From a virus (lineage: Duplodnaviria > Caudoviricetes), in the IMG/VR virus record IMGVR_UViG_3300020151_002484, positions 1 to 48,063 of that record: a DNA stretch of 48,063 bases; one strand, written 5' to 3'. Under the pieces are notes generated by a model. That model was not told the origin of the DNA. It did not search any database and worked only from the letters and a program-made list of their open reading frames with translations. This document shows, piece after piece, positions 5,201-38,646 of the stretch. Positions within the stretch are counted from its first letter, which is position 1, and the number at the start of each line of letters is the position of its first letter. Made by a program: the position numbers and the translations under genes.

Positions 5201-7057
5201 ATGTTAACCACAGAATCACAAATTTTGTCTGAAATTACTACCCATCTCAAATACGCGAAATTCGTACCTGAAAAAAACAGGAGAGAAACATGGGACGAGC
5301 TAGTAACTCGAAACAAGGAAATGCACTTGAAGAAATTTCCTCAACTAGTTGAAGAAATTGAAGCCGCGTACAAGTATGTTTATGACAAGAAAGTACTACC
5401 ATCTATGCGTTCTATGCAGTTTGCTGGTAAGCCTATTGAAATAAACAACGCTCGTATTTTTAACTGTTCTTATTTACCAATTGATGATTACAGAGCATTC
5501 TCTGAAATTATGTTTTTGTTACTTTCAGGTTGTGGGGTTGGATATTCAGTTCAAACACATCACGTAGAAAATCTACCTGAAATTAGAAAACCTTTGAAAT
5601 CAAAGCGTTATTTGGTAGGTGATTCTATTGAAGGATGGGCTGATGCTGTTCGTATGTTGACTAAAGCTTATTTTGGTCAAACATCAACTGCTCCTCTATT
5701 TGACTTTAGAGACATTAGAGCTAAAGGAGCTTCATTAATTACAGTAGGTGGTAAAGCACCAGGTCCAGAACCATTAAAGATTGCTTTGATTCATATGCAA
5801 GCAATTTTGGACCGTAAAAATGATGGTGAAAAATTAACAACTGTTGAATGTCATGATATTATTTGTCATTTAGCTGATGCTGTATTGTCCGGAGGTATTC
5901 GTAGGGCTGCTTTAATTGCTTTATTTAATTTGCATGATGAAGATATGTTGACTTGTAAATTTGGCAACTGGTGGGAAAATAATCCACAACGTGGCCGCGC
6001 CAACAATTCTGCAGTATTACTTCGTAACATGATTGATAAAGATACATTTATGGGATTATGGAGTAAAATTGAAGCTTCTAATAGCGGTGAACCCGGTTTC
6101 TTATTTACAAATGATAAAGACGCTGGAACTAACCCATGCGCTGAAATTAACTTAAAAGCTAATCAATTCTGTAATTTATGTGAAATCAATGCTTCAGATA
6201 TTGAGACACAAGAAGAATATAATAACAGAGCTAAAGCGGCAGCATTTATTGGTACATTACAAGCTAGTTATACTGACTTCCATTACTTAAGAGATGTTTG
6301 GAGAAAAACAACTGAAAAAGAAGCATTGTTAGGTATTGGAATGACAGGTATTGCTTCAGGTGCTGTATTTAAATTAAATATGAAAGAAGCAGCTAAAATA
6401 GCTGTTGATGAAAATGCTAGAGTAGCGGCTGTTTTAGGTATTAATAAAGCAGCTCGTGTTACTACAGTTAAACCTTCAGGTACTACTTCATTAGTGTTAG
6501 GAACAAGTTCAGGTATTCATGCTTGGCATGATGATTTTTACTTACGTAGAATTCGTTTAGGTAAAAATGAGGCTTTGTATACTTATCTATCTATTAACCA
6601 CCCAGAGATGTTAGAAGATGATTTCTTTAAACCAACACTTCAATCAATTGTTTCTGTACCTCAACGTGCTCCAGAAGGTTCTATTACACGTAAAGAATCA
6701 GCTATGGATTTGTTAGAGCGTATTAAAACAATTAACAAAAACTGGATTAAACCAGGTCATAGAAAAGGTGCTAATATGCATAATGTATCAGCTACAGTAA
6801 CTATTAAACAAGATGAATGGCCAGCAGTTGGAGAGTGGTTATATGAAAATAAAGAATACTTTACTGCACTTTCATTCTTACCTGAAGATCTTGGTACTTA
6901 TAAACAAGCACCTTTTGAAACAATTACTGAAGAGCAATTTAATGAGGCAGTAAAATCATTAAACCAAGTAGATTTATCAAAAGTAATTGAAATGAGTGAT
7001 AATACAGCGTTAATGGACCAAGCAGCATGTGCTGGTGGTGCCTGTGAAATTGTGTAA
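5201..7057 (+). CDS. nrdJ: Class II (adenosylcobalamin-dependent) ribonucleotide reductase
   Basis: FNCSY, RRAA, TNPCAEI (thiyl-radical Cys), KPSGTTS and C-terminal redox tail CAGGACEIV. No NrdB beta subunit nearby. Confidence 0.9.
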   Translation: MLTTESQILSEITTHLKYAKFVPEKNRRETWDELVTRNKEMHLKKFPQLVEEIEAAYKYVYDKKVLPSMRSMQFAGKPIEINNARIFNCSYLPIDDYRAFSEIMFLLLSGCGVGYSVQTHHVENLPEIRKPLKSKRYLVGDSIEGWADAVRMLTKAYFGQTSTAPLFDFRDIRAKGASLITVGGKAPGPEPLKIALIHMQAILDRKNDGEKLTTVECHDIICHLADAVLSGGIRRAALIALFNLHDEDMLTCKFGNWWENNPQRGRANNSAVLLRNMIDKDTFMGLWSKIEASNSGEPGFLFTNDKDAGTNPCAEINLKANQFCNLCEINASDIETQEEYNNRAKAAAFIGTLQASYTDFHYLRDVWRKTTEKEALLGIGMTGIASGAVFKLNMKEAAKIAVDENARVAAVLGINKAARVTTVKPSGTTSLVLGTSSGIHAWHDDFYLRRIRLGKNEALYTYLSINHPEMLEDDFFKPTLQSIVSVPQRAPEGSITRKESAMDLLERIKTINKNWIKPGHRKGANMHNVSATVTIKQDEWPAVGEWLYENKEYFTALSFLPEDLGTYKQAPFETITEEQFNEAVKSLNQVDLSKVIEMSDNTALMDQAACAGGACEIV

Positions 7058-10805: not shown

Positions 10806-10941
10806 ACCGATGAAAGATATTAATCCGGCTTGGGAAGCAGAGATTAAAAAAACACTAGATGCTTTGTGGAAAAATAGATATCGCCTAAGTTTGGAAAATT
10901 TAGATCTTTTACGTAGATTAGCAAATAAAACAAAATTATGA
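10780..10941 (+). CDS. Small hypothetical protein (start uncertain: 10756, 10780 or 10810)
   Basis: Fills the gap before queC and overlaps its start (ATGA). Confidence 0.5.
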   Translation: MNTKNSPSKPMKDINPAWEAEIKKTLDALWKNRYRLSLENLDLLRRLANKTKL

Positions 10942-11807
10942 ATCAACAAGCAGTATTATCATTAAGTGGGGGAATGGATAGCTCCACATTGCTTCTTCAT
11001 CTGCTAGCTCAAGGAAATGAAGTAACAGCATTATCTTTTGATTATGGTCAAAAACATAATGTTGAATTAGAACGAGCTAAAGATTTAGTTAGTTATTTAA
11101 ATGCTCAACTTTATAAAGTTGGAGATAATTATGGAGTAATTAAACACCAAGTAATTAAACTTGATGGTTTAGCTCAATTACTTAATTCATCACTTGTAAC
11201 TGGTGGGGATGATGTTCCTGAAGGTCACTATGCTGAAGAAAATATGAAAGCAACAGTTGTTCCTAATCGTAATAAAATATTTAGTTCTATTATTCAAGCT
11301 GTAGCTTTGTCAATAGCTGAGTCTAAAAGAACAAATTGTAAAATTGCTATGGGTATTCATGCTGGTGATCATTCAATTTATCCTGATTGTAGACAAGAAT
11401 TTAGAGATGCTGATTTTGAGGCGTTTAAATTAGGTAACTGGAATGCAGAATATGTTAGACATTATACTCCGTATTTGCATACTGATAAATTTGGTATTTT
11501 AAAAGATGGTTTTAATTGTTGTAAACAATTAGGAATTGATTTTGATGAAGTTTATAAACGTACTAATACATCTTACAAACCAATGCAGCACACTGTTTAT
11601 TGGGAAGATACAAATGGTGATACTCAATCATCAACTGAATGGTTTTCAGATTACAAATCAGCATCATCTGTTGAACGTGTAGAAGCATTTATTAAACTAG
11701 ATATAAAAGATCCTGTACAATATGCTGACGAATTCGGACCAGTAACTTGGGAATTTGTAAAAAAATACGTATCTTCAGTATTAGATGATCACAAAAAGAC
11801 GATATAA
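10938..11807 (+). CDS. queC: 7-cyano-7-deazaguanine synthase
   Basis: PP-loop SGGMDS, FDYGQKH, TVVPNRN, YPDCR. The C-terminal zinc cysteines are absent. Confidence 0.93.
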   Translation: MNQQAVLSLSGGMDSSTLLLHLLAQGNEVTALSFDYGQKHNVELERAKDLVSYLNAQLYKVGDNYGVIKHQVIKLDGLAQLLNSSLVTGGDDVPEGHYAEENMKATVVPNRNKIFSSIIQAVALSIAESKRTNCKIAMGIHAGDHSIYPDCRQEFRDADFEAFKLGNWNAEYVRHYTPYLHTDKFGILKDGFNCCKQLGIDFDEVYKRTNTSYKPMQHTVYWEDTNGDTQSSTEWFSDYKSASSVERVEAFIKLDIKDPVQYADEFGPVTWEFVKKYVSSVLDDHKKTI

Positions 11808-12000
11808 AAAATCAGAACTGTACCCACAAATGTATGTTGTGGTTAATAAACATGGTGAAGTGTTTACTGGTCTACTTAAAGGATATACTCAATGGTCCTA
11901 TGATTGGTCTCAAGCTAAACCATTATTAAAAGAAAATACCTCTCGTCTCCTAGAGGAAAATTTTGGAGCAGAATTAATTAAAGAAGAAGAAATTATATGA
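11785..12000 (+). CDS. Hypothetical protein
   Basis: 71-aa ORF overlapping the queC end and coupled to the next ORF. Confidence 0.6.
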   Translation: MITKRRYKKSELYPQMYVVVNKHGEVFTGLLKGYTQWSYDWSQAKPLLKENTSRLLEENFGAELIKEEEII

Positions 12001-12152
12001 ACCACCCCGATCCAACACAACATCAATTAGTCAGCTTTTTAAAATCAGCTGTTAGAATTACAGGTTACGTTGCCTTACCCTTTGGTATTGGCCTTGGTGT
12101 AACTATTTTAGTTATTAGTGAACTTATAGGAATTATTGAAGAACTAGTATGA
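11997..12152 (+). CDS. Small membrane protein, 51 aa (not in ORF track)
   Basis: MNHPDPTQHQLVSFLKSAVRITGYVALPFGIGLGVTILVISELIGIIEELV. ATGA overlaps at both ends. Confidence 0.75.
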   Translation: MNHPDPTQHQLVSFLKSAVRITGYVALPFGIGLGVTILVISELIGIIEELV

Positions 12153-12394
12153 GAAAATTATTTTACTATAGTGCACCTTGGTGTCAACCATGTCAAACTT
12201 TAGGTCCTATTATGGATCAAGTAGCAAAAACAATTCCTGTTATTAAAGTTAATATAGACTATGAAGCTGATTTAGCTCAAAGAGCAAATGTAAGAGCTGT
12301 ACCAACAGTAATACTTGTAGAAGGTGAAACTGAGGTTCGTAGGTTTACAGGTGCAAGAAGTTTTAATGATGTAATACAATTTATCAATGGGTAG
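12149..12394 (+). CDS. Thioredoxin
   Basis: APWCQPC active site and cis-Pro VPT motif. Confidence 0.9.
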   Translation: MRKLFYYSAPWCQPCQTLGPIMDQVAKTIPVIKVNIDYEADLAQRANVRAVPTVILVEGETEVRRFTGARSFNDVIQFING

Positions 12395-12851
12395 TTTTAG
12401 ATCAACAAAAGTATTTGATGGTTACTCAACTTGTTTCCGTCAATGGAAAGCAGAAGGAACTCATTGTAAGTTTCTGCATGGTTATGGAGTAAGTTTTAAA
12501 GTATGGTTTGAAGGTGAACTTGATGAAAGAAATTGGGTATGGGATTTTGGAGGCATGAAACGCGCTAAAGGTACTATTGATGGTATGAATCCAAAAGCAT
12601 GGATGGATTATATGTTTGATCATACTGTTATTATATCAGTAAATGATCCTTATATTAATTTATTTAAACAAATGGAAATAGATGGTATAATCCAGTTGAG
12701 AATAATTAAAACAACTGGAGCAGAACAGTTTGCAAAATACATTTATGAAAAATTGAATACCTTTATTCAAGAAGAAACTAATGGACGTGTAAAAATAGTT
12801 CAAGTTGAATTTAGAGAACATGAAAAAAATACAGCATTTTATAAAGGATAA
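12387..12851 (+). CDS. queD: 6-carboxy-5,6,7,8-tetrahydropterin synthase
   Basis: HCKFLHGY, VWDFG, FDHT, GAEQFA, EHEKN T-fold motifs. Adjacent to queE. Confidence 0.88.
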   Translation: MGSFRSTKVFDGYSTCFRQWKAEGTHCKFLHGYGVSFKVWFEGELDERNWVWDFGGMKRAKGTIDGMNPKAWMDYMFDHTVIISVNDPYINLFKQMEIDGIIQLRIIKTTGAEQFAKYIYEKLNTFIQEETNGRVKIVQVEFREHEKNTAFYKG

Positions 12852-12853
12852 TT

Positions 12854-13645
12854 ATGACAACAGAAACTAAAAAACCAGGTCGTATTACTGACTACAATAA
12901 AAAATTACCTATTCTTGAAATCTATACTTGTATTCAAAGTGAAGGTTCAAGACAAGGACGCCCAACAGTAGCTATCAGAACAACAGGGTGTACTCATAGA
13001 TGTTGGTTTGGTGAAGGCGGGTGGTGTGATAGTTGGTATACAAGTATCCATCCAGAAAAAGGTATTTATACATTTAATGACATTATTAAGATCTACGATG
13101 AAAATCCTGAAATTAAAGAAATGATGTTGACTGGTGGTTCACCTACTATGCAGCCTGATCTTTGTAATGAATTAACTCACTTTGCTAACGAGCGTGGTAT
13201 ATGTATAACCATTGAAACAGAAGGTAGCCACTTTATTGAAACCGATTATCCGTTTGGGTTGGTATCTTTATCTCCAAAGTTTGCTAATTCTGTTCCTGCT
13301 CTTGACGTTACCACTCCAATGGGTAAGCTCGTGGATCAAAAAATGATTGACCAGCATAACAAACTTCGTTTGAATAAAGAGGCAATTCGTAAAACTTTAG
13401 ATTACCATACAGACTATCATTACAAACCAGTTTATGATGGACATAAAGGCACACTAGAAGAAATTGAAGCGTTTAGGGTTGAAATGAATATTCCTAAAAA
13501 CAAAACATGGTTAATGCCTGCTGGTGATACTAGAGAAGAACTAATTAAACAATACCCTATCAGTTTAGAAAAAGCATTTGAAATGGATTATAATTGGACA
13601 GGTAGAGATCATATCATAAGTTACGATACTAAGAGAGCTGTATAA
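12854..13645 (+). CDS. queE: 7-carboxy-7-deazaguanine synthase (radical SAM)
   Basis: IQSEG, RTTGCTHRC-x7-CDS, LTGGSP, TIETEG, SLSPK. Confidence 0.92.
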   Translation: MTTETKKPGRITDYNKKLPILEIYTCIQSEGSRQGRPTVAIRTTGCTHRCWFGEGGWCDSWYTSIHPEKGIYTFNDIIKIYDENPEIKEMMLTGGSPTMQPDLCNELTHFANERGICITIETEGSHFIETDYPFGLVSLSPKFANSVPALDVTTPMGKLVDQKMIDQHNKLRLNKEAIRKTLDYHTDYHYKPVYDGHKGTLEEIEAFRVEMNIPKNKTWLMPAGDTREELIKQYPISLEKAFEMDYNWTGRDHIISYDTKRAV

Positions 13646-14635: not shown

Positions 14636-14877
14636 CCCCAAAATTAACTTTTTACTATCATGATGAATGCATGATGTGTGCTGATTTAAAACCTATTGTT
14701 CTTGAATTTAAAGATAACTTAGGAATTGAATTAATTAATACTTATGAAAATGAACTTTTAGTAGAAAATTTAGGTATTGCTTTTGTGCCTTGTTTAACTA
14801 TTGAAGATAAAAATGGACTTCATAAATTTGTTGGTCCACAAGAAATTAAAGAAGTTTTGAAAAAATTAGTTCTATGA
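14632..14877 (+). CDS. Thioredoxin/glutaredoxin-like protein
   Basis: CMMC CxxC motif and downstream VP. Confidence 0.7.
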   Translation: MTPKLTFYYHDECMMCADLKPIVLEFKDNLGIELINTYENELLVENLGIAFVPCLTIEDKNGLHKFVGPQEIKEVLKKLVL

Positions 14878-15377
14878 TAACTTTATTTACAGAAAGAGAA
14901 ATTAAAAACAAAGTAGGCGAAATTGCTTACAACATTAAAAAGAAACAACATAAACAACCTCCAGTATTCATTTGTGTTTTAAATGGAGCGTTTATGTTTT
15001 TTACAGACTTAGTAAAACAAGTAGGGGAGTGCCATATTGATTTTATTAGTGCTAAGTCATATGATGAAACCAAACAAGGTGAAATACGAATCCTAAAATC
15101 AATTACTATTAATATTGAAGGAAAAGATGTATACCTTGTAGATGACATCTATGATTCAGGTAACACTATGAATCGTCTAATTAAACACCTCCAATACCTT
15201 AATCCAAATTCAATTACTCCAGTAACATTATTTAAAAAACATTATTCAAACACAGATGGTTTGGTTTATGGTTTTGAATTAAAAGATGAACATTGGTTAG
15301 TAGGGTATGGTTTAGATGCTACTGATGGGACTAAAAGGAATCTTTCTCATATACTTGGCTACGTACCAGAAGATTAA
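14874..15377 (+). CDS. hpt: Hypoxanthine-guanine phosphoribosyltransferase-like protein
   Basis: CVLNGAFMFFTDL, SY loop, PRPP loop LVDDIYDSGNT, VGYGLD. Confidence 0.9.
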   Translation: MITLFTEREIKNKVGEIAYNIKKKQHKQPPVFICVLNGAFMFFTDLVKQVGECHIDFISAKSYDETKQGEIRILKSITINIEGKDVYLVDDIYDSGNTMNRLIKHLQYLNPNSITPVTLFKKHYSNTDGLVYGFELKDEHWLVGYGLDATDGTKRNLSHILGYVPED

Positions 15378-15383
15378 TATATT
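15354..15383 (+). promoter_or_regulatory. Conserved promoter YTWGG-N19-TATATT upstream of folE, overlapping the hpt 3' end
   Basis: CTTGG(15354-15358), 19 nt, TATATT(15378-15383). ATG at 15395. Confidence 0.7.
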
Positions 15384-15394
15384 AATAAAAAGTT

Positions 15395-16084
15395 ATGAAT
15401 AATAAAACATTTAAATTAGATTTAGAAGTAGTAAAAATGGGTTATGCTAATGGGGTTGCTCCTGGTTTTCCATTCACTGAAAAAGAAAAATGGGCAATGG
15501 TAGATGAAGCTGCTGAAGCATATGGTAAATTTTTAGATGCTTTAGGATGTGATTGGAAAAACGATCCTAATAGTTCAGATACACCTCGTCGTGTAGCTAA
15601 AGCCTATGTGTTTGATTTATGGAAAGGTCGTTATGATGCTATGTCTGAAATTACTTCATTCCCAAGTGATGGTTATGATGGTATTGTTATTGAACGTAAC
15701 ATTCCTCTTACATCAATGTGTTCACACCACCACCAAACAATTGGAGGTGTAGTTCATATTGGCTACATTGTAGGTGAAGGTGGTTCTGTAATTGGTTTAA
15801 GTAAATTAAATCGTATTGTAGAACATTTTGGACGTCGAGGAGCTATTCAAGAACAGCTTACATCAGCTATTCATCAAGCAGTAGAAAAGATTTGTGAAAA
15901 CAATAAAGGAGTTATTGTAACTATAGTTGCTACTCACAATTGTGTAAGCTGTAGAGGTGTAAAACATCAAGGTGCTTCAATGGTTACCACTAAAGCATCA
16001 GGAGTGTTTATAGATAATGCTAATCAAGCACGTAAAGAGTTTTTTGACTCAATTAAAATTAATAACGGAGGACATCAAATATAA
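15395..16084 (+). CDS. folE: GTP cyclohydrolase I
   Basis: DTPRRVAK, SMCSHH, GLSKLNR, IQEQLT, HNCVSCRG. Confidence 0.95.
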   Translation: MNNKTFKLDLEVVKMGYANGVAPGFPFTEKEKWAMVDEAAEAYGKFLDALGCDWKNDPNSSDTPRRVAKAYVFDLWKGRYDAMSEITSFPSDGYDGIVIERNIPLTSMCSHHHQTIGGVVHIGYIVGEGGSVIGLSKLNRIVEHFGRRGAIQEQLTSAIHQAVEKICENNKGVIVTIVATHNCVSCRGVKHQGASMVTTKASGVFIDNANQARKEFFDSIKINNGGHQI

Positions 16085-16254
16085 TGAAGTTAGGTAGTTT
16101 TGTTGAAACAGTAATTCGTATTATTACCTTTGGACAAGGCTACCGAATTACGTTATTTATAGCTAAAAAAATGGGCTATGATGATTGTGGTTGTAAAGCT
16201 AGAAAAGATAAATTAGATAAATTTTGGGACAAAGTTCTAAAAAAATTAAAATAG
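16084..16254 (+). CDS. Small protein with DCGC motif, 56 aa (not in ORF track)
   Basis: MKLGSFVETVIRIITFGQGYRITLFIAKKMGYDDCGCKARKDKLDKFWDKVLKKLK. TAATG overlap with folE and stop 1 nt before the next ATG. Confidence 0.7.
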   Translation: MKLGSFVETVIRIITFGQGYRITLFIAKKMGYDDCGCKARKDKLDKFWDKVLKKLK

Positions 16255-16255
16255 T

Positions 16256-16753
16256 ATGTTATTAAATTCAAACCAAATATCCAGTTACATTAAAGAATCA
16301 GAGTTTTCAAAACGCGCTCAAATAGGTATTGACTTATCAGCAGCTAAAATTGAACGTATTGATGTTGGTTCTGTTGTCTACAAAGACAAAACTCACATTG
16401 ATGCCTTAGGTTATGTTGAAATGCCTACAGTAAGTATTGATGGTAAAGAGTGTTGGCGCCTTGAAAAAGGTATTTACTCAATTACATTCAATGAAGGTAT
16501 TCATGTACCTAATGATTGCGCGGCTAAAATTACTCACCGTTCTTCTTTGTACCGTACAGGAACAATCATTGAATCACCATGGTGGGATCCAGGTTTTTAT
16601 TGTGACCAAATGAACACTACAATGATTGTTAACAGTGTTATTATTATTGAAAAGAATGCTAGGGTTGCTCAAATTGCTTTTTGGCGAGTTGAAGAAGTTG
16701 GAGAAACTTATGACGGTCAATGGCAAGGTTTAAACACTGCTTACAAACAATAA
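16256..16753 (+). CDS. Trimeric dUTPase / dCTP-deaminase-fold protein (more likely dUTPase)
   Basis: GIDL, RSSLYR, WDPGF, ARVAQ, YDGQWQ. No Glu is seen at the deaminase catalytic position after DPGF. Confidence 0.8.
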   Translation: MLLNSNQISSYIKESEFSKRAQIGIDLSAAKIERIDVGSVVYKDKTHIDALGYVEMPTVSIDGKECWRLEKGIYSITFNEGIHVPNDCAAKITHRSSLYRTGTIIESPWWDPGFYCDQMNTTMIVNSVIIIEKNARVAQIAFWRVEEVGETYDGQWQGLNTAYKQ

Positions 16754-16773
16754 TAAATTACTTTTGAAAGAAT

Positions 16774-16800
16774 AGGCTTGGTTTACCAGGCCTTTCTTGT
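16774..16800 (+). terminator. Hairpin plus T-rich run overlapping the polymerase promoter
   Basis: AGGCTTGG-ttta-CCAGGCCT (one G-U pair) followed by TTCTTGT. Confidence 0.55.
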
Positions 16801-16806
16801 TATATT
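16777..16806 (+). promoter_or_regulatory. Conserved promoter YTWGG-N19-TATATT upstream of DNA polymerase
   Basis: CTTGG(16777-16781), 19 nt, TATATT(16801-16806). ATG at 16813. Confidence 0.75.
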
Positions 16807-16812
16807 AACAGC

Positions 16813-19407
16813 ATGTATCAAGCTCTATATTTCGATAAAGATGAAAAACAATATTATTTAAGAGACGATAGGTGGACTGGATTTAAAACTGTTAAATACT
16901 GGCCTACTTTATACCAAGCTGATCCTGATGGTGAATTTGAAACATTAGAAGGTACTAAGGTAACACCAATCAAAAAGATGGATGATTGGAAAGATCCTAA
17001 GTATTATGAAAAAGATGTTGATAAATTAACTCGTTTTTTAGTAGACCACTATTATGAAACAGATGACACTCCTAAATCTCACAACATTGTTTATCTAGAT
17101 ATTGAGTGTGTTGTTGCTGGAGCACTAACTGAGGAAAACATTAAAGATCCTAAGGGTGAAATAACAGCTGTTGCTTTATATGATCATAACTCTAAAAAAT
17201 ACTACTGTATGATTTTAGATAAAGACAAAGCACTTAAGGATATTAAAGGAGAAAATAAAGAAGTTATACCTTATTCTACTGAAAAAGAATTATTACATGG
17301 GTTCTTAGATAAATGGTATGAACTTGATCCTACTATTATTACAGGTTGGAATAGTGGTTTCTTTGATATTCCTTATTTATATTATCGTATTAAGAAAGTA
17401 TTAGGTGAAACAATAGCTGCTACTTTATCTCCTATTAATAAAATTAAATTTACACCTCAATTTGCAGACCAACCAGTTAATTTAGGAGGTATTAATCATC
17501 TTGACTATATGCTTTTATTTAAAAAGTATATTATGAAACAAGAACCATCCTATCGTTTAGGTGATATAGGTAAAAAATATGCTAAATTAGAAAAGATAGA
17601 ATATCAAGGTTCACTTGATAAATTATTTAAAGAAGATCCTAATACATTTATTGAGTATAATTTACGAGATGTAGAGATTATTGTTGAACTTGAAAACAGA
17701 ATGAAGTTTATTGAGTTAACAGTTACAATTGGTCATCTATGTCATACAGAATATGAAGCTATCTATTATTCAACTATGTTGAATGAAGGTGCTATTTTAA
17801 CTTATCTAAAACGTAAAGGTATTATTTCACCTAATAAACCTACTACTTATAATCCAGCATTAAGAACATTAGAGGAAGAATATGCTGGTGGTTATCTAAA
17901 AGATCCTGTACCTGGTTTATATGAGTGGGTTATTGATTTAGATTTTACATCACTGTATCCTTCTATTATTAGATCACTTAATATGGGTATTGAAACATTG
18001 GTAGGTAGAATTGTAAATAAAGATAAATATGACAACCAATGGTCACTTCAGGAACTTAAATCAATGAATCCTGATAAAATTATCTATATTGAAAAAGTTA
18101 GAAAAGATAGAACATTAGCTCGTTCTGAAATAACTGTAAGTGAAATTATCAATATTATTGAAAAAAACAATTTAATTGTATCTGCTCCTGGTGTGTTGTT
18201 TAGGAAAGATAAATCAAGTGTGGTTTGTGAAATCTTAGCTGACTGGTTTGCTAAACGACAGGAATATAAAAAACTAATGAAAAAAGCATATAAGGTAGAT
18301 AATGATCCTGTTATGGGTGCCTTTTATGATAGACGCCAACACGCCTATAAAATTAAATTAAATGATGTTTATGGTGTGTTTGCTCAAAATGGTTGGAGAT
18401 ACACAGATGGAAATAAATTCATTAGTAAAGCCATCACTTTATCAGGTCAAAGACTATTACAAGAAAGTATTAGGAATATGAATGAATACCTAAATAAAGA
18501 ATTAGGTAATGAAATTCCTAAAGACTATATTGTCACTAGTGATACTGACTCACTATTCATTCAATGTAAAGATTTGCTTATAGCAAGACATCCAGATATT
18601 GATTTTAATGATAGAGAAGATGTTATTAATAAGATATTAGTTATAGCTAATGAGTTGCAAAAAATGGCTAATGATTTTATTGGTAACTTTGCTAAAACTG
18701 CTTTTAATTTAGGAGATAAAGCAACTCACTATTTTGAGTTAAAACAAGAAGTTGTACTAGATAGAGGTTATTTTGCAGGTAAGAGGAGATACGCCCAACA
18801 TATTGTTAACAAGGAAGGTGTACCTGTAGATGAGTTGGATGTTAAAGGTTTGGATCTAATGAAATCTAATTTCCCACCATTATTTAGAAAGTTTGGGGAA
18901 AACATTATTAATGAAATTATGTTTGGTAAACCTAAAACTGATATTGATAAACAAATATTAGATTTTAGAACTGAACTAAGAACTATTGATTGGAGGAAAA
19001 TTCTTAAACCTACTGGTTTAAAGAAAATGAGTGAGTATTTAGCTTCTCCTCCACGTGCTGGTGAGGTATTTTCTAAATTAGGATCAAAATGTCCTATTAA
19101 TACTAAAGCAGCTATATTTTATAATGACATTCTGAAATTTAAAAATTTAGATAAAAAATATCCAACATTTCAAATAGGTGATAAAATGTATATTGCTTAT
19201 TTAAAAGATAATCCATATCGAATTGATGTTGTTGGTTTTAATGGGTTTAATGACCCACCTGAACTAATGGAGTTTATAGAAAAATATATTGATAGAGATG
19301 GTTTGTTTGATTCAGTTTTGAAAAACAAATTAGAATCATTATATTCAGATTTAGGATGGGGTGCAGTAGTACTTAATCACAATATTAATAAATTTTTTAA
19401 ATTTTAA
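16813..19407 (+). CDS. Family B DNA polymerase with 3'-5' exonuclease
   Basis: ExoI LDIE, ExoII GWNSGFFD, ExoIII YNLRD. Polymerase motifs DFTSLYPSII, KIKLNDVYG, SDTDS, KRRY. Confidence 0.97.
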   Translation: MYQALYFDKDEKQYYLRDDRWTGFKTVKYWPTLYQADPDGEFETLEGTKVTPIKKMDDWKDPKYYEKDVDKLTRFLVDHYYETDDTPKSHNIVYLDIECVVAGALTEENIKDPKGEITAVALYDHNSKKYYCMILDKDKALKDIKGENKEVIPYSTEKELLHGFLDKWYELDPTIITGWNSGFFDIPYLYYRIKKVLGETIAATLSPINKIKFTPQFADQPVNLGGINHLDYMLLFKKYIMKQEPSYRLGDIGKKYAKLEKIEYQGSLDKLFKEDPNTFIEYNLRDVEIIVELENRMKFIELTVTIGHLCHTEYEAIYYSTMLNEGAILTYLKRKGIISPNKPTTYNPALRTLEEEYAGGYLKDPVPGLYEWVIDLDFTSLYPSIIRSLNMGIETLVGRIVNKDKYDNQWSLQELKSMNPDKIIYIEKVRKDRTLARSEITVSEIINIIEKNNLIVSAPGVLFRKDKSSVVCEILADWFAKRQEYKKLMKKAYKVDNDPVMGAFYDRRQHAYKIKLNDVYGVFAQNGWRYTDGNKFISKAITLSGQRLLQESIRNMNEYLNKELGNEIPKDYIVTSDTDSLFIQCKDLLIARHPDIDFNDREDVINKILVIANELQKMANDFIGNFAKTAFNLGDKATHYFELKQEVVLDRGYFAGKRRYAQHIVNKEGVPVDELDVKGLDLMKSNFPPLFRKFGENIINEIMFGKPKTDIDKQILDFRTELRTIDWRKILKPTGLKKMSEYLASPPRAGEVFSKLGSKCPINTKAAIFYNDILKFKNLDKKYPTFQIGDKMYIAYLKDNPYRIDVVGFNGFNDPPELMEFIEKYIDRDGLFDSVLKNKLESLYSDLGWGAVVLNHNINKFFKF

Positions 19408-20707: not shown

Positions 20708-21001
20708 ATGAAATTAGAAGCATTATATAACGCAGTTATTGTAAAACCTATGGAGGCTGAAGAAACTTCATATGGTGGTATTATTGTTCCCGATTTGGGA
20801 AATGAAAAAAACAAACTTGGAAAAGTAGTAACAGTAGGTAAAGGATACTATTCAGTGACCGGAACTTGGATTGATACTGTTATTCAAGAAGGAGATATTG
20901 TAGTGTTACCTACAATGGGTTTTTCTAAATTAGAACATGAAGGTGAAGAATACTGGATTGGTCCTGAGAATCAAGTTTTAGCAAAAGTAAATAAAGATTA
21001 A
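20708..21001 (+). CDS. groES: Co-chaperonin GroES
   Basis: Mobile loop EETSYGGIIVPD, GKVVTVGKG, GDIV. Directly upstream of groEL. Confidence 0.93.
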   Translation: MKLEALYNAVIVKPMEAEETSYGGIIVPDLGNEKNKLGKVVTVGKGYYSVTGTWIDTVIQEGDIVVLPTMGFSKLEHEGEEYWIGPENQVLAKVNKD

Positions 21002-21002
21002 T

Positions 21003-22616
21003 ATGAGCAAAATTATAGAATTCGGCCCTGAGGCAAGGAAAAAAATGATCGATGGTATCGATAAATTAGCAAATGCTGTAACAGCAACACTTGGTCCTAA
21101 TGGACGTAATGTGGTTATTGCAAATGGAGGTATTCCTCAATCAACTAAAGATGGTGTCACAGTAGCTAAGTCAATTACATTAGAAGATCCAATTGAAGAA
21201 TTAGGTGTTCAATTAGTTAAACAAGCTGCTATTAAAACCGCTGAAAATGCTGGTGATGGTACTACAACATCAACTTTGTTAGCTCGTGAGATGGCTAAAC
21301 AAGGTCTTAAGTATCTTAACAATGGTGAGAATGCAGTTGAAATTAAACGCAGTATTGATAAAGCAGTAAAAGAAGTAGTTAATTATCTTCATGATAATAT
21401 TAAAGAAGATATTTCATCTGAAGCTCAACTTAAACAAATTGCCACTATCTCAGCTAATAATGATCCTGAAGTAGGTGAATTAATTGCTACAGCGATGGAA
21501 AAAGTAGGTCGTGAGGGTGTTGTGTTTATTGAAGAATCTAAAAATGGAGAAACATATCTTGAAACAGTAGAAGGTATGCAGTTTGATAGAGGTTATAAAT
21601 CACCTTATTTTGTAACTGATAATAACACTATGAGTACTACTATCAATGATCCTTATATTTTGATTGCTGATAAGAAGTTTACTACTGTAAAAGAATTGTT
21701 ACCTATTTTAGAAGCTGTATCTAACCAAAATAAACCATTGGTTATTATTGCTGAAGATGTAGATGGTGAAGCATTAGCTACTTTAATTGTAAACAAAGCA
21801 AGAGGTATTTTGAAAACAGTTGCTATTAAAGCTCCTGATTTTGGAGATCGTCGTAAATTGTTGCTTGAAGACATTGCTATCATGACAGGTGGACAAGTAT
21901 TCAGTACTGAAAAAGGTATGAAACTTGATAAATTTAGTTGGGATTGGTTTGGTCAAGCACGTGTAATTACAGTAAATAAAGATCAAACAACTATTGTTGA
22001 TGGTAATGGTGATTCAGATAAAATCACAAACCGTATTGAAGAATTGCAATCCCAAATTGATAAAGCACAATCTCCTTATGAACGTGAAAAATTACAAGAA
22101 CGTTTAGCTAAATTTATTGGTGGTGTAGCAATTGTGCATGTAGGTGGATTTACTGAATCAGAAATGAAGGAAAAGAAAGACCGTGTTGATGATGCTTTAC
22201 AAGCTACTAAAGCTGCTTTAGAAGAAGGAATTGTACCTGGTGGTGGAATGGCTTTGCTACATGCTAGAAATGGAATTACTGATGTTAACAGCATTGGTGG
22301 TAGGATTGTTTATAATGCCTGTGCTGAACCATTTAAGAAAATTTTATCTAATGCTGGCTATGAATTAGAAGATATCTATAATGCCTTGTCTGGAGCAACG
22401 GGAGGTGATTATTGGTATGGATTTAATTTAATGGAAGAAGATTTTGATGATATGAGAGAATTAGGTATCATTGATCCATCTAAAGTAACTCGTACTGCAC
22501 TTGAAAATGCTGCTTCAGTAGCAGGTACTATTTTATTAACAGAAGCTGTTGTAGTTGACAAGCCCGAAGAAAACAAGAATGATGATGGGCTTGGAGGTAT
22601 GATGGGAATGATGTAA
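21003..22616 (+). CDS. groEL: Chaperonin GroEL
   Basis: [40 protein letters not shown] tail. Confidence 0.98.
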
Positions 22617-24438: not shown

Positions 24439-24844
24439 TTGGTTAAAAGAAATTACTACTAACAAAACGTCCTGGGTTTCTTTTACAGAGGATCAGCGAG
24501 AATCATTCAATTCTTACATGGTTCATAGATTTGTAAGTATGTATGAAGGATACACTGAGGTTGCAAATTTGGGCCAAAGAATCCCTTATCCTGATAAAGA
24601 AAAAACTTATAAATACTATTGCTCTATGTTACCTAAAAAGAATGTTTTCCTCAAGTACATTAAATCTTCTAAAAAGAAGCCTAGTAATTCATTGCTACAG
24701 TATGTAGCTAATTTTTATACAATATCATTAGGCGAGGCTGAAGATTATTTGTATATTCTTAAAAAAGAAGGAATAGAACATATTCTAGAAAAATCAGGAG
24801 TTGATGATAAGGAAATTAAAAAGTTATTAAAAGAAATCAAATGA
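24425..24844 (+). CDS. Clamp loader small subunit (gp62-like), putative
   Basis: GTG start. IFDWLKEI...FNSYMVHRFVSM...N...YY..LPKK..F.KYIK pattern, near the gp44-like gene. Confidence 0.65.
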   Translation: MTIFDWLKEITTNKTSWVSFTEDQRESFNSYMVHRFVSMYEGYTEVANLGQRIPYPDKEKTYKYYCSMLPKKNVFLKYIKSSKKKPSNSLLQYVANFYTISLGEAEDYLYILKKEGIEHILEKSGVDDKEIKKLLKEIK

Positions 24845-25104
24845 CAAAAAATAGTGATGTTTATGGAGTCACATTTGACACTCCAAACTTAAATACAAGA
24901 ACCATTCCTAAAACAGACTTAATTGTAGACTCAGTTATTGATGAGCATATTAAAAGAGCAGAAATGGGTAAAAACAAATATAATAATACTTTAGATAGAA
25001 CTGATTTATCTGTATTAGAATATTTACAACACGCCAAAGAAGAAGCAATGGATTTAGCTCTCTACTTAGAGAAAACAATTCAGATGCTGAACGGTAAAAA
25101 ATAA
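24841..25104 (+). CDS. MazG-like all-alpha nucleotide pyrophosphohydrolase, putative
   Basis: G..KY..TL.R.DL...LQHAKEEAMDLALYL containing an EExxD metal-binding helix. Confidence 0.5.
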   Translation: MTKNSDVYGVTFDTPNLNTRTIPKTDLIVDSVIDEHIKRAEMGKNKYNNTLDRTDLSVLEYLQHAKEEAMDLALYLEKTIQMLNGKK

Positions 25105-26310: not shown

Positions 26311-27759
26311 ATGAAAGATAAATTTGGTTATTTGCCTCCTGAAAAGAGGAAGAAGATTATGCTTATCTGTGATGACATCAGAGTCCACTCAGGTATTGCA
26401 ACTGTCGCTAGAGAAATTGTGTTACACACAGCACAACATTTTAATTGGGTTAACATCGCTGGAGCCGTTACACATCCTGAAAAAGGTAAAAAGTTAGATC
26501 TTTCTGAAGATACTAATAAAAATTCAGGACTTACGGATTCCTCAGTAGTATGTTATCCTGTAGATGGATATGGTGATCCATCTCTTATTAGACAACTTAT
26601 TCAACTCGAGAATCCAGATGCAATTATGTTGATTACTGATCCTCGTTATTTTGTTTTCTTATTTTCTATTGAAAATGAAATTCGTAGACAAATCCCAATC
26701 ACCTATTTAAATATTTGGGATGATTATCCAGCTCCATTATATAATAAACCATATTATGAGGCCTGTGATTTATTAATGGGTATTTCTAAGCAAACAGTAA
26801 ATATTAATAAAATTGTTTTAGGGGAGGTTGCTAAAAAACGAATAGTAAAATACATTCCTCATGGTTTGAATGATAAAATTTTCCGACCAATTAAAGAATC
26901 AGATAAAGAATATGCTGATGTTGTTTCGTTAAAAAAACAATTATTTGGAAAATCCCAACCCGAGTTTATTATTTTCTTTAACTCAAGGAATATTAGACGT
27001 AAACAAATTCCTGATGCATTAATGGCTTTTAGATTATTTTTAGATAAATTACCTAAGGAACAAGCTAAAAAATGTAAAATGCTATTACATACAGAACAAG
27101 TAAGTGAACATGGTACTGATTTAAATGCTGTTATTGATTTATTTTTCCATGAAGAATATCCAAATAATATAGTATTTACAAATATGAGAGCTAGTGTACA
27201 TGAAATGAGTTTATTGTATAATATGTGTGATGCTCAAATCTTATTAACATCTAATGAAGGTTGGGGATTAAGTTTAACAGAAGCTATGTTATGTGGTTTA
27301 CCTATTATTGCTAACGTAACTGGTGGTATGCAAGATCAAATGCGTTTTGAATTTGAAGATGGTACTTGGATTGATTTTGATGAAAATTTCCCATCAAACC
27401 ACAGAGGTACAATTAAAAAGCATGGTGAGTGGGCATTTCCAGTATACCCAACTTCACGTTCAATTGTAGGTTCACCTCCAACACCTTATATCTTTGATGA
27501 TAGATGTGAACCAGAAGATGCTACAGAACGTATTCTTGAAATCTACAACATGAGTAAAGAAGAACGTAAAGCTAGAGGCTTAAAAGGTAGAGAATGGGCT
27601 ATAAGTGATGAAGCCGGATTTACCTCAGAACATCAAGCAAAACGTGTTATTGAATCCTTTGATGAATTATTTTCAACTTGGAAACCAAGAGAAAAATTTG
27701 AATTTATTAAAGCTACAGATTATCCAAAAAGAACATTAAAACATAAATTAATATATTAA
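26311..27759 (+). CDS. GT-B (GT4-like) glycosyltransferase
   Basis: SGIATV, IPHG, RNIRRK, EGWGLSLTEA (E-x7-E), GG. Confidence 0.9.
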   Translation: MKDKFGYLPPEKRKKIMLICDDIRVHSGIATVAREIVLHTAQHFNWVNIAGAVTHPEKGKKLDLSEDTNKNSGLTDSSVVCYPVDGYGDPSLIRQLIQLENPDAIMLITDPRYFVFLFSIENEIRRQIPITYLNIWDDYPAPLYNKPYYEACDLLMGISKQTVNINKIVLGEVAKKRIVKYIPHGLNDKIFRPIKESDKEYADVVSLKKQLFGKSQPEFIIFFNSRNIRRKQIPDALMAFRLFLDKLPKEQAKKCKMLLHTEQVSEHGTDLNAVIDLFFHEEYPNNIVFTNMRASVHEMSLLYNMCDAQILLTSNEGWGLSLTEAMLCGLPIIANVTGGMQDQMRFEFEDGTWIDFDENFPSNHRGTIKKHGEWAFPVYPTSRSIVGSPPTPYIFDDRCEPEDATERILEIYNMSKEERKARGLKGREWAISDEAGFTSEHQAKRVIESFDELFSTWKPREKFEFIKATDYPKRTLKHKLIY

Positions 27760-29075
27760 TGAAACCGTTATTCGTAATAAGTTGCCCTATTGACACTTAC
27801 AGTGGTTATGGAGCTCGCTCTCGTGATTTAGTCAAGTCAATTATTGAACTTGATAAATATGATGTAAAAATTATGGCCCAACGTTGGGGTGAATGCCCTT
27901 GGGGATTTATTAAAGAAAATCCTGAATGGTCATTTTTAGAAAAACATATTTTAAATACACCACAATTACCTAAACAGCCTGAAATTTGGGCCCAAGTAAC
28001 TGTACCTAATGAATTCCACCCAGTAGGAAAATATAACATTGGGTTTACAGCAGGTATTGAAACTACAACAGCTATTCCTGAATGGATTGAAGGATGTAAT
28101 AGAATGGATTTAAATATTGTTTCATCTAAACATTCTCTTGATGTATTTAAGAATAGTCAGTTTGAAAAAATAAATGAACAAACAAAACAAAAAGAAGGTG
28201 TTCTAAAATTAGAGAAACCTATGGAAGTATTGTTTGAAGGAGCTGATTTAACTAAATATTTTGAAATGGCCGATGATGATATTCCTGAAAATGATTTAGT
28301 AACAGCTTTAGATGATATACCTGAATCGTTTGCTTATTTATTTGTAGGTCATTGGATGCAGGGTGATTTGGGTGAAGACCGAAAAAATGTAGGTTTATTA
28401 ATTAAAGCATTTTTTGAAATATTTAAAAACAAATCCAAAAAACCAACATTAATTCTTAAAACATCAGGAGCAGGTTCATCATATTTAGATAGAGAAATGA
28501 TTTTGCAAAAAATTATCCAAATCCAAGATTCAGTTGAATCAACAAACTTACCTAATATCTATTTATTGCATGGTGAATTTACAGATGAGGAAATGAATTA
28601 TTTGTATAATCACCCAAAAGTAAAATCAATGATTAATTTAACTAAGGGTGAAGGCTTTGGACGTCCATTACTTGAATTTAGTTTAGCCAAAAAACCAATT
28701 ATTGTATCAAATTGGTCAGGACATATGGACTTTTTAAATCCTGAGTTTGTGGTTGCTTTAGAAGGTAAATTAACCAATGTACATCCAAGCGCAGCCAATC
28801 AATTCCTTATTCAGGACAGTCAGTGGTTTTCACCTGAACATAATCATATTGGAAATTACTTAAAAGATGTATATGAAAATTATAAAAAGTATACTGATGG
28901 AGCTAAACGTCAAGCGTATAGAAGTAAATCAATGTTTAATTTTGACGAAATGAAAAAATTAATAGGCAACTATCTTGAACAGTACATTCCAGAATTCCCT
29001 AAACAAGTTCAAATTAAACTCCCTACCATGAATAAAATTACATTACCTAAAAAACCAGTATTAACTAATGGATAA
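27759..29075 (+). CDS. GT-B (GT4-like) glycosyltransferase
   Basis: SGYG, DRKN, EGFGRPLLE (E-x7-E), SGHMDF. Confidence 0.88.
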   Translation: MKPLFVISCPIDTYSGYGARSRDLVKSIIELDKYDVKIMAQRWGECPWGFIKENPEWSFLEKHILNTPQLPKQPEIWAQVTVPNEFHPVGKYNIGFTAGIETTTAIPEWIEGCNRMDLNIVSSKHSLDVFKNSQFEKINEQTKQKEGVLKLEKPMEVLFEGADLTKYFEMADDDIPENDLVTALDDIPESFAYLFVGHWMQGDLGEDRKNVGLLIKAFFEIFKNKSKKPTLILKTSGAGSSYLDREMILQKIIQIQDSVESTNLPNIYLLHGEFTDEEMNYLYNHPKVKSMINLTKGEGFGRPLLEFSLAKKPIIVSNWSGHMDFLNPEFVVALEGKLTNVHPSAANQFLIQDSQWFSPEHNHIGNYLKDVYENYKKYTDGAKRQAYRSKSMFNFDEMKKLIGNYLEQYIPEFPKQVQIKLPTMNKITLPKKPVLTNG

Positions 29076-29556
29076 TTTAATTGTTTGTGATCGTTGTAAT
29101 TCTGATGCTTGTTATGTAGACGAGGTGAACCAAGATATTAAAACATATTTTTGTTATGGATGTGGTTTTCAAACCAATTCATTAATGAAATCAGGTAGTG
29201 ACTTCCTAAATGAACAAATGGAAGTCCTACCCGAAATTTATAAAGATTTAATGGTGACTGATGATAATGGAAAAGTATGGATGCCATCAGCTATTAATTT
29301 ACCTCAACAAGGTATGATTTTTGTAAACGGACCATCTTCAGATGAATGGAAGTGGAGTGCTGTAAAAGCTGTTTCTGTACTAGAAAAAGAAAAAACAAAA
29401 TACCCAATCCCAGGAAAACCAGGAAAATATTATGATTGGAGAATGGATATGTCTACAATGAAAAATTATCCTGAACGTGATTTTATGGGAGCTTTAACGT
29501 ATATTGGCGTTTTACCTGAAGACGAAGATGATCAGCATAGCGATAACAGTTTGTAA
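29068..29556 (+). CDS. Hypothetical protein with N-terminal zinc ribbon
   Basis: CDRC...CYGCGF. Confidence 0.7.
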   Translation: MDNLIVCDRCNSDACYVDEVNQDIKTYFCYGCGFQTNSLMKSGSDFLNEQMEVLPEIYKDLMVTDDNGKVWMPSAINLPQQGMIFVNGPSSDEWKWSAVKAVSVLEKEKTKYPIPGKPGKYYDWRMDMSTMKNYPERDFMGALTYIGVLPEDEDDQHSDNSL

Positions 29557-30136
29557 TGAACATAAAGAGTTAGAAACTCTACTTGATTATCTTCAAGAAC
29601 GAGCTTTATCTCCTGATTATGAAATTATTATTCAAATTGATGAACAAAATCATACGCCTGAAGTACTTCATATTATTATAGATAGAGGTATTAAACATCA
29701 TTTTTTCCCATTAAACAAAAATTTTGCGGCTTACAAAAATGAATTAATTAAACACTGTTCTGGAGAATATATCTTCCAAGTCGATGCTGATGAAATACCA
29801 AGTCTTGAGTTACTTGCTATGTTACCTGATATTTTAGAAAGCAACCCTGATGTGGATGTATACTTAGTTCCTCGGATTAATACCGTAAGTGGTCTCACCG
29901 AGGAACACATTCAGAAATGGAGATGGAATATTGAAGGTGATAGAATTAATTTCCCTGACTATCAATGGAGAATTTATCGTAACAACGATTCAATAAAATG
30001 GATAAATAAAGTACATGAGCGTTTAGATGGGTTTAAGCAATATACTGCTTTACCTGCTGAAGATGAGTTTTGCTTATTACACCCAAAAACAATAGAAAAA
30101 CAAGAAAAACAAAATAATTTTTATAATACAATATGA
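29528..30136 (+). CDS. GT-A (GT2-like) glycosyltransferase
   Basis: Start MISIAITVCNE (29528). DADE DxD motif, PDYQWR, VHE. Confidence 0.88.
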   Translation: MISIAITVCNEHKELETLLDYLQERALSPDYEIIIQIDEQNHTPEVLHIIIDRGIKHHFFPLNKNFAAYKNELIKHCSGEYIFQVDADEIPSLELLAMLPDILESNPDVDVYLVPRINTVSGLTEEHIQKWRWNIEGDRINFPDYQWRIYRNNDSIKWINKVHERLDGFKQYTALPAEDEFCLLHPKTIEKQEKQNNFYNTI

Positions 30137-31086
30137 AAGTAGTTTATATTACAGGTTGTTTAGGATTTATAGGATCCTATGTAACCCGCAAATGCCTTGA
30201 AAAAGGTTGGTATGTAAGAGGTATTGATAAAATAACTTATGCTGCTAATATTGATTTATTAGATGAGTTTTTAGATTATCATAATTTTATTTTTGAAGAA
30301 AAAGACATAAACCAACTTGATTTTTTATATGATTGTGATTATGTAATTAATACAGCAGCTGAAACCCATGTTGGAAATAGTATAGTCCAATCAGATGAAT
30401 TTATACATTCTAACATAAATGGTGTACATCACCTTTTAGAGCTAATTAAAAACTTTAGACAAGAAGGTAAAACCAAACCAACCTTAATTCACTTTAGTAC
30501 AGATGAAGTTTATGGTGATATTGAAGATGGAACTCACACCGAAACTGATTTATTAAAACCATCAAACCCATATTCAGCAACAAAAGCCGCAGCTGATCAA
30601 TTAGTATTAGCTTGGGCTCGTACTTATAATTTACCTTATATTATTGTTAGACCAACTAATAATTATGGAATGGGACAATATGTTGAAAAATTAATTCCAA
30701 AAACATTAAAATATCTTAAATTAGATCGTAAAATACCTTTGCACAATAGTGGTTCTCCTATTCGTACTTGGTTACATGCTGATGACACAGCAGAAGCTAT
30801 TATGTCAATCATCGAATCAGGCAAAACAAACGAAATATATAATATCTCAGGTGGATTTGAACAATCTAATTTAATGACTGTATCTCAAATTATTAGTTTA
30901 TATTATCCTAATACAGATAAAGCTTTAGAATATTATTGTAATTTTGAATTTAATAGAGATGGTCAAGATGTTAGATATTCTTTAGATGATTCTAAATTAA
31001 GAGCATTAGGTTGGAAACCGAAGCGTGTATTTCAAAATGAATTACCTTATATTGTAGATTATTATAAAGATAAATTTATATGGTAA
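30133..31086 (+). CDS. rmlB: dTDP-glucose 4,6-dehydratase-like protein
   Basis: GCLGFIG, DKITYA, AAETHV, STDEVYG, PYSATK, NNYG, EKLIP. Confidence 0.9.
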   Translation: MKVVYITGCLGFIGSYVTRKCLEKGWYVRGIDKITYAANIDLLDEFLDYHNFIFEEKDINQLDFLYDCDYVINTAAETHVGNSIVQSDEFIHSNINGVHHLLELIKNFRQEGKTKPTLIHFSTDEVYGDIEDGTHTETDLLKPSNPYSATKAAADQLVLAWARTYNLPYIIVRPTNNYGMGQYVEKLIPKTLKYLKLDRKIPLHNSGSPIRTWLHADDTAEAIMSIIESGKTNEIYNISGGFEQSNLMTVSQIISLYYPNTDKALEYYCNFEFNRDGQDVRYSLDDSKLRALGWKPKRVFQNELPYIVDYYKDKFIW

Positions 31087-31622
31087 TAAACACTCACCCT
31101 CACCTCAACGATATATTAATCTTCACACCTGAAGTTTACTATGATTATAGAGGTTTTTTTATGGAATCTTATAATGATGAAATATATAATATTTTAAATA
31201 TAAATTTTGTTCAAGATAATCATTCAAAATCATTTAAAAATGTTTTAAGAGGACTTCATTATCAATGGAATAAACCTGTATCTAAACTATTTAAAGTAAT
31301 ATATGGAGGTGGTGCTATTATATTTTTAGATATTAAACAAAATTCCCCAACTTATGGACAACATGGAACTTTACCACTTATATCTGAGGGTGATGTTGTT
31401 TTTATACCTTATGGATATGCTGTTGGTTTTGTTTCTTATCAAGATGAAAGCCATCTATATTATAAGTGTTCAAATAAAAGAAATGCTAAGCAGGAAGGTT
31501 CAATTTATCCTCTTAATTTAGGATTAAATTTGGAAGTTGACAAAGAGAATATTATATTGTCTGATAAAGATAAATACGCTTTAACATTTGAAGAATATAA
31601 AACCAACCCCAAATTTGTATGA
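31080..31622 (+). CDS. rmlC: dTDP-4-keto-6-deoxyhexose 3,5-epimerase (RmlC-like), copy 1
   Basis: DYRGFFME, QDNHS, VLRGLHYQ, LSDKD. Confidence 0.88.
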   Translation: MVINTHPHLNDILIFTPEVYYDYRGFFMESYNDEIYNILNINFVQDNHSKSFKNVLRGLHYQWNKPVSKLFKVIYGGGAIIFLDIKQNSPTYGQHGTLPLISEGDVVFIPYGYAVGFVSYQDESHLYYKCSNKRNAKQEGSIYPLNLGLNLEVDKENIILSDKDKYALTFEEYKTNPKFV

Positions 31623-33908: not shown

Positions 33909-33920
33909 GGAATAATTATA

Positions 33921-33928
33921 TATTTATA
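33921..33928 (+). promoter_or_regulatory. TATTTATA motif upstream of the second sugar-biosynthesis unit
   Basis: Lies in the only sizeable intergenic gap within the island (33909-33952). Confidence 0.4.
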
Positions 33929-33952
33929 TCAAATAATTAGTTTTAATAGAAT

Positions 33953-34891: not shown

Positions 34892-34902
34892 TATAAAAAA
34901 TA

Positions 34903-38645: not shown

Positions 38646-38646
38646 T

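Follow-up and report, generated by a model that had tools for sequence, protein, structure and literature searches.

The virus record IMGVR_UViG_3300020151_002484, 48,063 bases long and analysed here over its whole length (the window), encodes a hypoxanthine/guanine phosphoribosyltransferase (HPRT; gene hpt) directly upstream of folE, in a gene cluster predicted to replace DNA guanine by a 7-deazaguanine that also comprises queC, queD, queE and the guanine transglycosylase gene dpdA3 (Table 1). The linkage of hpt to this cluster is real, and the enzyme probably salvages the guanine released by the DpdA3 base exchange, converting it to GMP, from which the GTP used by FolE would be regenerated. 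This closed guanine loop, which the original prediction put forward as the simpler of two roles, fits the evidence and is the reading favoured here. The accompanying expectation of high or complete guanine replacement is also supported, whereas the other proposed role, in which HPRT itself makes the modified nucleotide, is not. The chemistry of HPRT is most likely ordinary; its setting points to a guanine-salvage accessory of a known DNA-modification system that is real, conserved and, apparently, unpublished.

Active site and family of the hpt product

The best NCBIfam match of the hpt product is TIGR01203 (HGPRTase; E 1e-36), which at 125.9 bits lies under the cut-off of 150 but far above other phosphoribosyltransferase models, and its top PDB match is an HGXPRT (E 8e-27). 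With bacterial HGPRTases (TIGR01203; PDB 4qri, 3o7m and 3acb) the phage enzyme shares loop I (LNG), loop II (SY), the GYGLD and RN motifs, and the phosphoribosyl pyrophosphate (PRPP) loop DDIYDSGNT, including the catalytic Asp. It differs from them in having DD for ED, a Trp at the position of the stacking Phe and Lys-Lys or Lys-Arg at the O6-binding site, in its sub-threshold score and in belonging to a phage clade that is tied to folE. The window protein retains the PRPP loop with the N7-contacting Asp, the Ser-Tyr of loop II and the equivalents of human Asp193 and Arg199. In human HGPRT, the purine N7 is contacted by Asp137 and Lys165 (PMC2228302, Table 2). The residue at the Asp137 position, Asp94, is kept in all 85 distinct phage HPRTs (the window protein included), as are Gly96, Thr98 and Arg155, with Asp148 kept in 84. 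Among wider HPRT relatives, 127 of the 135 that could be aligned (from 150 returned) have Asp at the N7 position, the others having Glu (5), Ala (2) or Asn (1), and none Gly. The column equivalent to Lys165 is ambiguous in register by one residue; the window protein has Lys121-Lys122, and Lys occurs at one or other of these positions in 77 of 85 phage HPRTs. Judged by its sequence, hpt thus encodes an intact HPRT-family enzyme with an N7-reading active site of canonical type, and activity on guanine is predicted.

The enzyme was compared with phosphoribosyltransferases (PRTases) that act on deazapurines. TubE, of tubercidin biosynthesis, is a proven PRTase for 7-carboxy-7-deazaguanine (CDG) that does not use 7-deazaguanine itself (PMC6112128). 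Like the phage enzyme, TubE and its toyocamycin counterpart ToyH are type I PRTases clustered with folE, queD and queE. Gene-context orthologues stand in here for the assayed proteins: 40 regions around QueD were drawn from 401 genomes of the genus of one Streptomyces isolate, and 12 contained a PRTase. A search with the published tubE primer gave 43 matches, with no tubE in the two Streptomyces loci inspected, and the QueC region of genome G001 held no PRTase. Pfam analysis of five of these 12 clusters identified two as toyocamycin-type, one as tubercidin-type and two as being of other kinds (L296:3281-9140 and L271:4915-12007). These last two combine a Gly-type PRTase with FGE-sulfatase-like, DUF6884 and glycosyltransferase genes, and L296 also has a reverse-transcriptase-domain match.

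In all 12 Streptomyces PRTases the Asp137 position is occupied by Gly and the Lys position by Arg-Asn, whereas their solved Gpt-like relatives have Asp and Lys there, and phage Gpt-like PRTases keep the Asp in 7 of 7 and the Lys in 6 of 7 cases. The TubE/ToyH orthologues differ from the phage enzyme in being Gpt-like, in the Asp-to-Gly and Lys-to-Asn changes in the N7/O6 pocket, and in their neighbours, which are GMP reductase and UbiD or PurA/PurB genes. The window HPRT has the folE/queD/queE clustering of this group without its Gly/Asn marker, and aligns with a TubE-type protein over 25 residues only. The Asp-versus-Gly marker offers a simple sequence test separating guanine-salvage from deazapurine PRTases.

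Linkage to the cluster and recurrence of purine PRTases

Co-occurrence of hpt with que genes in related phages, the check suggested in the original prediction, bears out the association. Among 79 IMG/VR loci (from the best 80 of 100 matches to hpt), que or folE genes are present in 78 and folE in 68; folE adjoins hpt in 52 (42 of 65 when counted by distinct proteins), and dpdA3 is present in 37 of the 45 loci with at least 9 kb of upstream DNA. Conversely, in the best 80 of 402 dpdA3 loci, hpt occurs in 40 of the 43 that extend to folE; among the three loci without it, one belongs to a genome carrying hpt at another site and another is a 93%-complete record with no hpt. When loci were instead chosen by their sliding clamp, 34 of 35 showing folE also showed hpt, sufficient upstream DNA being available in 37 of the 75 loci.

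Purine PRTases of a second family accompany the same pathway elsewhere. A Gpt-like PRTase lies directly before folE in immuto_2-6A and directly after it in Brevundimonas phage MaInes, and in VpKK5, MMDA13 and ply2008005c FolE itself carries an N-terminal Gpt-like domain. In FolE of several DpdA1 siphoviruses (L165:6998-7900, L166:6989-7876 and L167:5754-6647) such a domain is unannotated and its PRPP loop is intact. The VpKK5 domain matches 39 phage records, including the FolE genes of NP1 and Quinobequin-P09. As with the window HPRT, the PRTase of these DpdA1 siphoviruses (VpKK5, MMDA13, ply2008005c and the NP1 group) immediately precedes FolE and keeps the Asp; unlike it, the domain is fused, of Gpt class and shortened, is partnered by DpdA1 and is annotated only as GTP cyclohydrolase, its activity being predicted. 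DpdA of VpKK5 shares 47% identity with its phage 9g counterpart, an enzyme known to modify plasmid DNA upon expression in E. coli (PMC6884629); a purine PRTase therefore accompanies a DNA-level transglycosylase family too. Phages 9g, CAjan and iggy are not among the 39 matches, so the fusion occurs in no partly modified phage for which measurements were at hand. In a distant lineage (L080:13521-15891; L512, L514 and L516-L519), folE-hpt-polB precedes genes for a glycosyltransferase-like protein and for a protein of 416 aa that has 26% identity to a 540-aa PA5oct protein encoded near PA5oct queE. The 416-aa protein is taken here for a DpdA of PA5oct type, and the lineage is possibly another deazaguanine variant.

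HPRT and Gpt are two unrelated 6-oxopurine salvage families, separately recruited to the same role. PF00156 matches are present in immuto_2-6A, phiST (far from the cluster) and PA5oct, with none in CP220, MA9V-3, BSP7, Youna2 or one 93%-complete relative, and HPRT is a useful but dispensable accessory. In a literature search of partial coverage, no paper was found on a purine PRTase beside DpdA in phages or on guanine salvage with FolE or DpdA, and 'DpdA3' retrieved only Cui et al. (PMC10516641). In the portion of that article available to us, 'phosphoribosyl' appears nowhere in the main text and twice in the supplement (in an unrelated Pfam name), and 'kinase' nowhere in the supplement. PMC10484667, PMC7824862, PMC5081515, PMC12343510 and 10.64898/2026.04.15.718813 were also drawn on, in part. 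No earlier description was found of accessory guanine salvage by members of the HPRT and Gpt families, even fused to FolE.

DpdA3, the predicted base and the route of modification

The window DpdA3 is 33–40% identical, over 88–98% of its length, to CP220 gp056 and immuto_2-6A gp206, both classed as DpdA3 (Cui 2023, supplement DS1; PMC10516641). Asp52, Asp83 and Asp205 are invariant in 41 DpdA3 sequences and align with the DpdA1 aspartates. An alignment-based structure model (pLDDT 94.8, against 31.6 for a single-sequence model) has alternating strands and helices; no solved relative was found by sequence-profile search. The parts common to DpdA3 phages (PMC10516641), namely a DpdA3 homologue with the catalytic aspartates, FolE, QueD, QueE and QueC, are all encoded in the window, with FolE and QueC each 63% identical to those of immuto_2-6A. 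In that phage, too, folE is immediately preceded by a PRTase gene, and a MazG-fold gene lies two genes downstream of folE. The window differs from the DpdA3 phages in a PRTase of HPRT rather than Gpt class, polB rather than polA, and a kinase gene not lying beside dpdA3. High or complete replacement of guanine finds support in DpdA3 itself, since members of this subfamily occur in phages measured at complete replacement (CP220, phiST and immuto_2-6A; PMC10516641). QueF, DpdN and DpdL are all missing from the window, and the base in the phage DNA is therefore predicted to be dPreQ0 or the deoxynucleoside of 7-amido-7-deazaguanine (dADG); QueF likewise gave no match in five of five complete relatives, in a search that had no positive control. 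Avoidance of restriction sites was examined as an indicator of full modification: observed/expected ratios of palindromes were 0.84 (AT-only) and 0.96 (G-containing) for 6-mers, with the opposite order, 0.95 and 0.77, for 4-mers. The window QueC has SDYKSASSVER and lacks the C-terminal cysteines, presumably zinc ligands, and the same holds for QueC of immuto_2-6A, a phage that makes a preQ1 derivative.

In the proposed loop, FolE, QueD, QueE and QueC would convert GTP to preQ0, as is established for these families, and DpdA3, by homology, would exchange guanine in DNA for preQ0 or ADG. By the stoichiometry of transglycosylation, each exchange would spend one GTP through FolE and free one guanine. 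HPRT, given its canonical active site, would join the freed guanine to PRPP, yielding GMP, from which host kinases would complete the loop and refill GTP; removal of guanine may also drive the reversible exchange toward completion. Several observations weigh against this reading. No phage guanylate kinase was found in five of five complete relatives, and the loop therefore needs host enzymes. Hosts usually own salvage enzymes, PF00156 matches being present in 14 of 14 control genomes. The hpt-linked loci share ancestry and their gene order is inherited within the clade, so that the linkage counts are not independent events. A polA lineage (L052, L056, L057, L058 and L060) has queC, queD, queE, hpt and the dUTPase, with no folE or dpdA3 within the loci fetched, these contigs being fragments. 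Within the active site, Arg occupies position 122 in 53 of the 85 phage HPRTs, and eight have Lys at neither 121 nor 122. HGPRT accepts allopurinol, in which position 7 is an unsubstituted carbon (PMC2228302), so there is no bar in principle to 7-deaza bases; the accessible text of two papers on 7-deazaguanine or HGPRT holds nothing on 7-substituted bases as substrates. Finally, the Asp/Gly marker derives from the 12 gene-context orthologues, not from assayed proteins, and lineage may contribute to the difference because these orthologues are Gpt-like.

The main rival to the salvage-loop role holds that hpt is a general auxiliary gene of purine salvage that raises nucleotide supply, its place in the cluster being due simply to the region's nature as the phage's nucleotide-metabolism and replication operon. 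Thioredoxin, ribonucleotide reductase (RNR) and dUTPase genes do occur in the region (with thyA in relatives), the shared ancestry of the loci suits this view, and adenine phosphoribosyltransferase (APRT) and MTA/SAH nucleosidase genes elsewhere in the window, unlinked to hpt, indicate a broader phage involvement in purine salvage here, which also weighs against the loop. We nevertheless regard it as unlikely, given that HPRT and Gpt were recruited independently next to folE, that Gpt is fused to FolE in unrelated siphoviruses, and that one locus (L348) is missing hpt and folE together at the cluster position. Moreover, when 50,697 phage records were searched by tblastn with hpt, the 18 matches came mostly from short or unannotated records, and no phage among them had a dpdA3 match.

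Far less probable is the route first proposed, in which HPRT, acting like TubE or ToyH, joins preQ0, CDG or ADG to PRPP, after which the ribonucleotide would be phosphorylated and, once RNR had reduced it, be incorporated by PolB. TubE proves that a type I PRTase can take a 7-substituted deazaguanine (PMC6112128), two of the three phages measured at complete replacement have a PRTase, and position 121 is basic in 76 of 85 phage HPRTs, where the Streptomyces enzymes have Arg. Yet the N7-contacting Asp is invariant in the phage enzymes and Gly in all 12 Streptomyces ones, the two groups align over only the short stretch noted above, CP220 is fully modified without any PRTase, and DpdA3 would have no job. 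A deaza-GTP pool would also enter RNA. The replication genes on which this route would draw are interchangeable among relatives: of the 80 dpdA3 loci, 28 have a class II and 25 a class I RNR; of 121 hpt-bearing loci (with redundancy), 98 have polB and 4 polA. As for the gene after folE, 60 of those 121 loci have the present dUTPase type there, 37 have a gene for a MazG-fold protein and 24 have neither. RNR, polymerase and dUTPase therefore bear no mark of specialisation, and the dUTPase-like gene, polB and the RNR gene are likely ordinary replication genes. A nucleotide-level route through HPRT is not supported. The dUTPase-fold protein was also considered as a dGTPase and found no support, the same slot being occupied by a canonical dUTPase in some of the 24 'neither' loci.

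A nucleotide-level route through DpdA3 and a kinase is a different matter, and one compatible with salvage by HPRT, through which it would not run. DpdA3 would act on free deoxyguanosine or dGMP, exchanging its base for preQ0, a deoxyguanosine kinase-like phage protein would carry the product toward the triphosphate, the polymerase would incorporate it so that every G is replaced, and HPRT would drain the guanine; HPRT would be a guanine sink whether modification precedes or follows replication. All six cultured short-DpdA3 lineages inspected have a P-loop kinase-like gene adjoining dpdA3 or one gene away, though the evidence is weak for the last two (CP220, immuto_2-6A, phiST and MA9V-3 by Pfam AAA_28 or AAA_18 at E 1e-6 or better; BSP7 by dNK at E 0.013; Youna2 by eye only). 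A homologue of the CP220/immuto kinase is encoded by five of five complete relatives of the window phage; the solved structure closest to this kinase is that of a deoxyguanosine kinase (E 0.0035). DpdA3 also lacks the C-terminal part of DpdA1, being some 45–65 residues shorter, and besides complete replacement in DpdA3 phages, the ADG nucleoside has been found in infected cytoplasm and DpdA3 activity could not be shown in E. coli (PMC10516641). With that nucleoside and a modified-dGTP route once proposed for Campylobacter phages (noted by Hutinet et al. 2019), the idea is an old and unsettled one. Weighing against it, the kinase gene in the clade of the window lies near the terminase, far from dpdA3, the window itself has no kinase homologue, and members of that kinase family also turn up in 89 Streptomyces phage records for which no dpdA3 match was obtained. 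DpdA3 and DpdA1 do not differ in net charge, which was used as an indicator of lost DNA binding, there is neither a dedicated polymerase (polA and polB both occur) nor a clear dGTPase, and Cui et al. proposed that all 7-deazaguanine DNA modification is post-replicative (PMC10516641).

Pre-replicative systems of the Z-genome type combine a dedicated synthase, a kinase, a canonical dNTP hydrolase and a selective polymerase; in the clade of the window, the kinase is found in relatives only and is not exclusive, and the dUTPase slot and polymerase are interchangeable. We hold the DpdA3–kinase route to be a tentative possibility, well short of probable. If true, it would give guanine a counterpart to the Z-genome pathway and disprove the published claim that 7-deazaguanine DNA modification is always post-replicative. 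As DpdA3 failed in E. coli, a guanine sink, and possibly also the kinase, is suggested as a missing ingredient for its reconstitution.

Gene map and neighbouring features

The window has a T4-like replication module, and nearly all of its long open reading frames (ORFs) are on the + strand. The arrangement described in the original prediction, in which hpt immediately precedes folE, a dUTPase-like gene and polB come next and a class II RNR lies in the same window, is confirmed, with the addition of a small ORF between folE and the dUTPase-like gene. The gap between hpt and folE is 17 nt, and queC, queD and queE (10938-13645) lie upstream of hpt, with thioesterase, nuclease and thioredoxin genes in between.

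Table 1. Genes of the deazaguanine cluster and associated replication genes in the window
Gene or product	Position	Strand	Evidence and remarks
Class II RNR	5201..7057	+	TIGR02505 E 4e-80; context gene; class I instead in many relatives
dpdA3, guanine transglycosylase, DpdA3 subfamily, 258 aa	9312..10088	+	Homology to CP220 gp056 and immuto_2-6A gp206
queC, preQ0 synthase	10938..11807	+	PF06508 E 6e-39; 63% identity with immuto_2-6A QueC
queD, CPH4 (6-carboxy-tetrahydropterin) synthase	12387..12851	+	PF01242 E 2e-14; phrog_2389 E 1e-38
queE, CDG synthase	12854..13645	+	phrog_2076 E 1e-42; TIGR03365 E 6e-15
hpt, hypoxanthine/guanine phosphoribosyltransferase, 167 aa	14874..15377	+	PF00156 E 6e-23; canonical active-site motifs all present
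folE, GTP cyclohydrolase I	15395..16084	+	PF01227 E 6e-43; 63% identity with FolE of immuto_2-6A and phiST
Conserved hypothetical ORF, 56 aa	16084..16254	+	Between folE and the dUTPase-like gene; absent from the original prediction; recurs in close relatives; no family match in Pfam and phrog profile libraries
Archaeal-type trimeric dUTPase-like protein	16256..16753	+	PRK02253 E 1.5e-25; PDB 9w59 E 1e-13
polB, family B DNA polymerase, T4-like	16813..19407	+	phrog_262 E 3e-160

A MazG-like protein had also been listed. The gene taken to be meant (24841-25104) encodes a conserved phage protein of 87 aa containing the MazG-like stretch EEAMD; the assignment found no confirmation in Pfam, NCBIfam or Atlas. 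In the interval between the dUTPase-like gene and polB (16754-16812), a GC-rich inverted repeat followed by a T-rich stretch may form a terminator. A pyrimidine-dimer glycosylase-like gene (PF03013; 10088-10573) overlaps the dpdA3 stop codon and is found in some close relatives only. Phage GroES and GroEL genes (20708-22616) are shared with immuto_2-6A. Some 18 kb of the window (26311-44942) hold genes for glycosyltransferases, nucleotide-sugar epimerases, a split transketolase, an aminotransferase, a PfkB kinase and methyltransferases. The APRT gene (PRK02304, above cut-off) is followed directly by that for the MTA/SAH nucleosidase (40549-41572), in a block with several methyltransferase genes and a B12 radical SAM gene; the two likely form an adenine-recycling pair, parallel to the guanine one.

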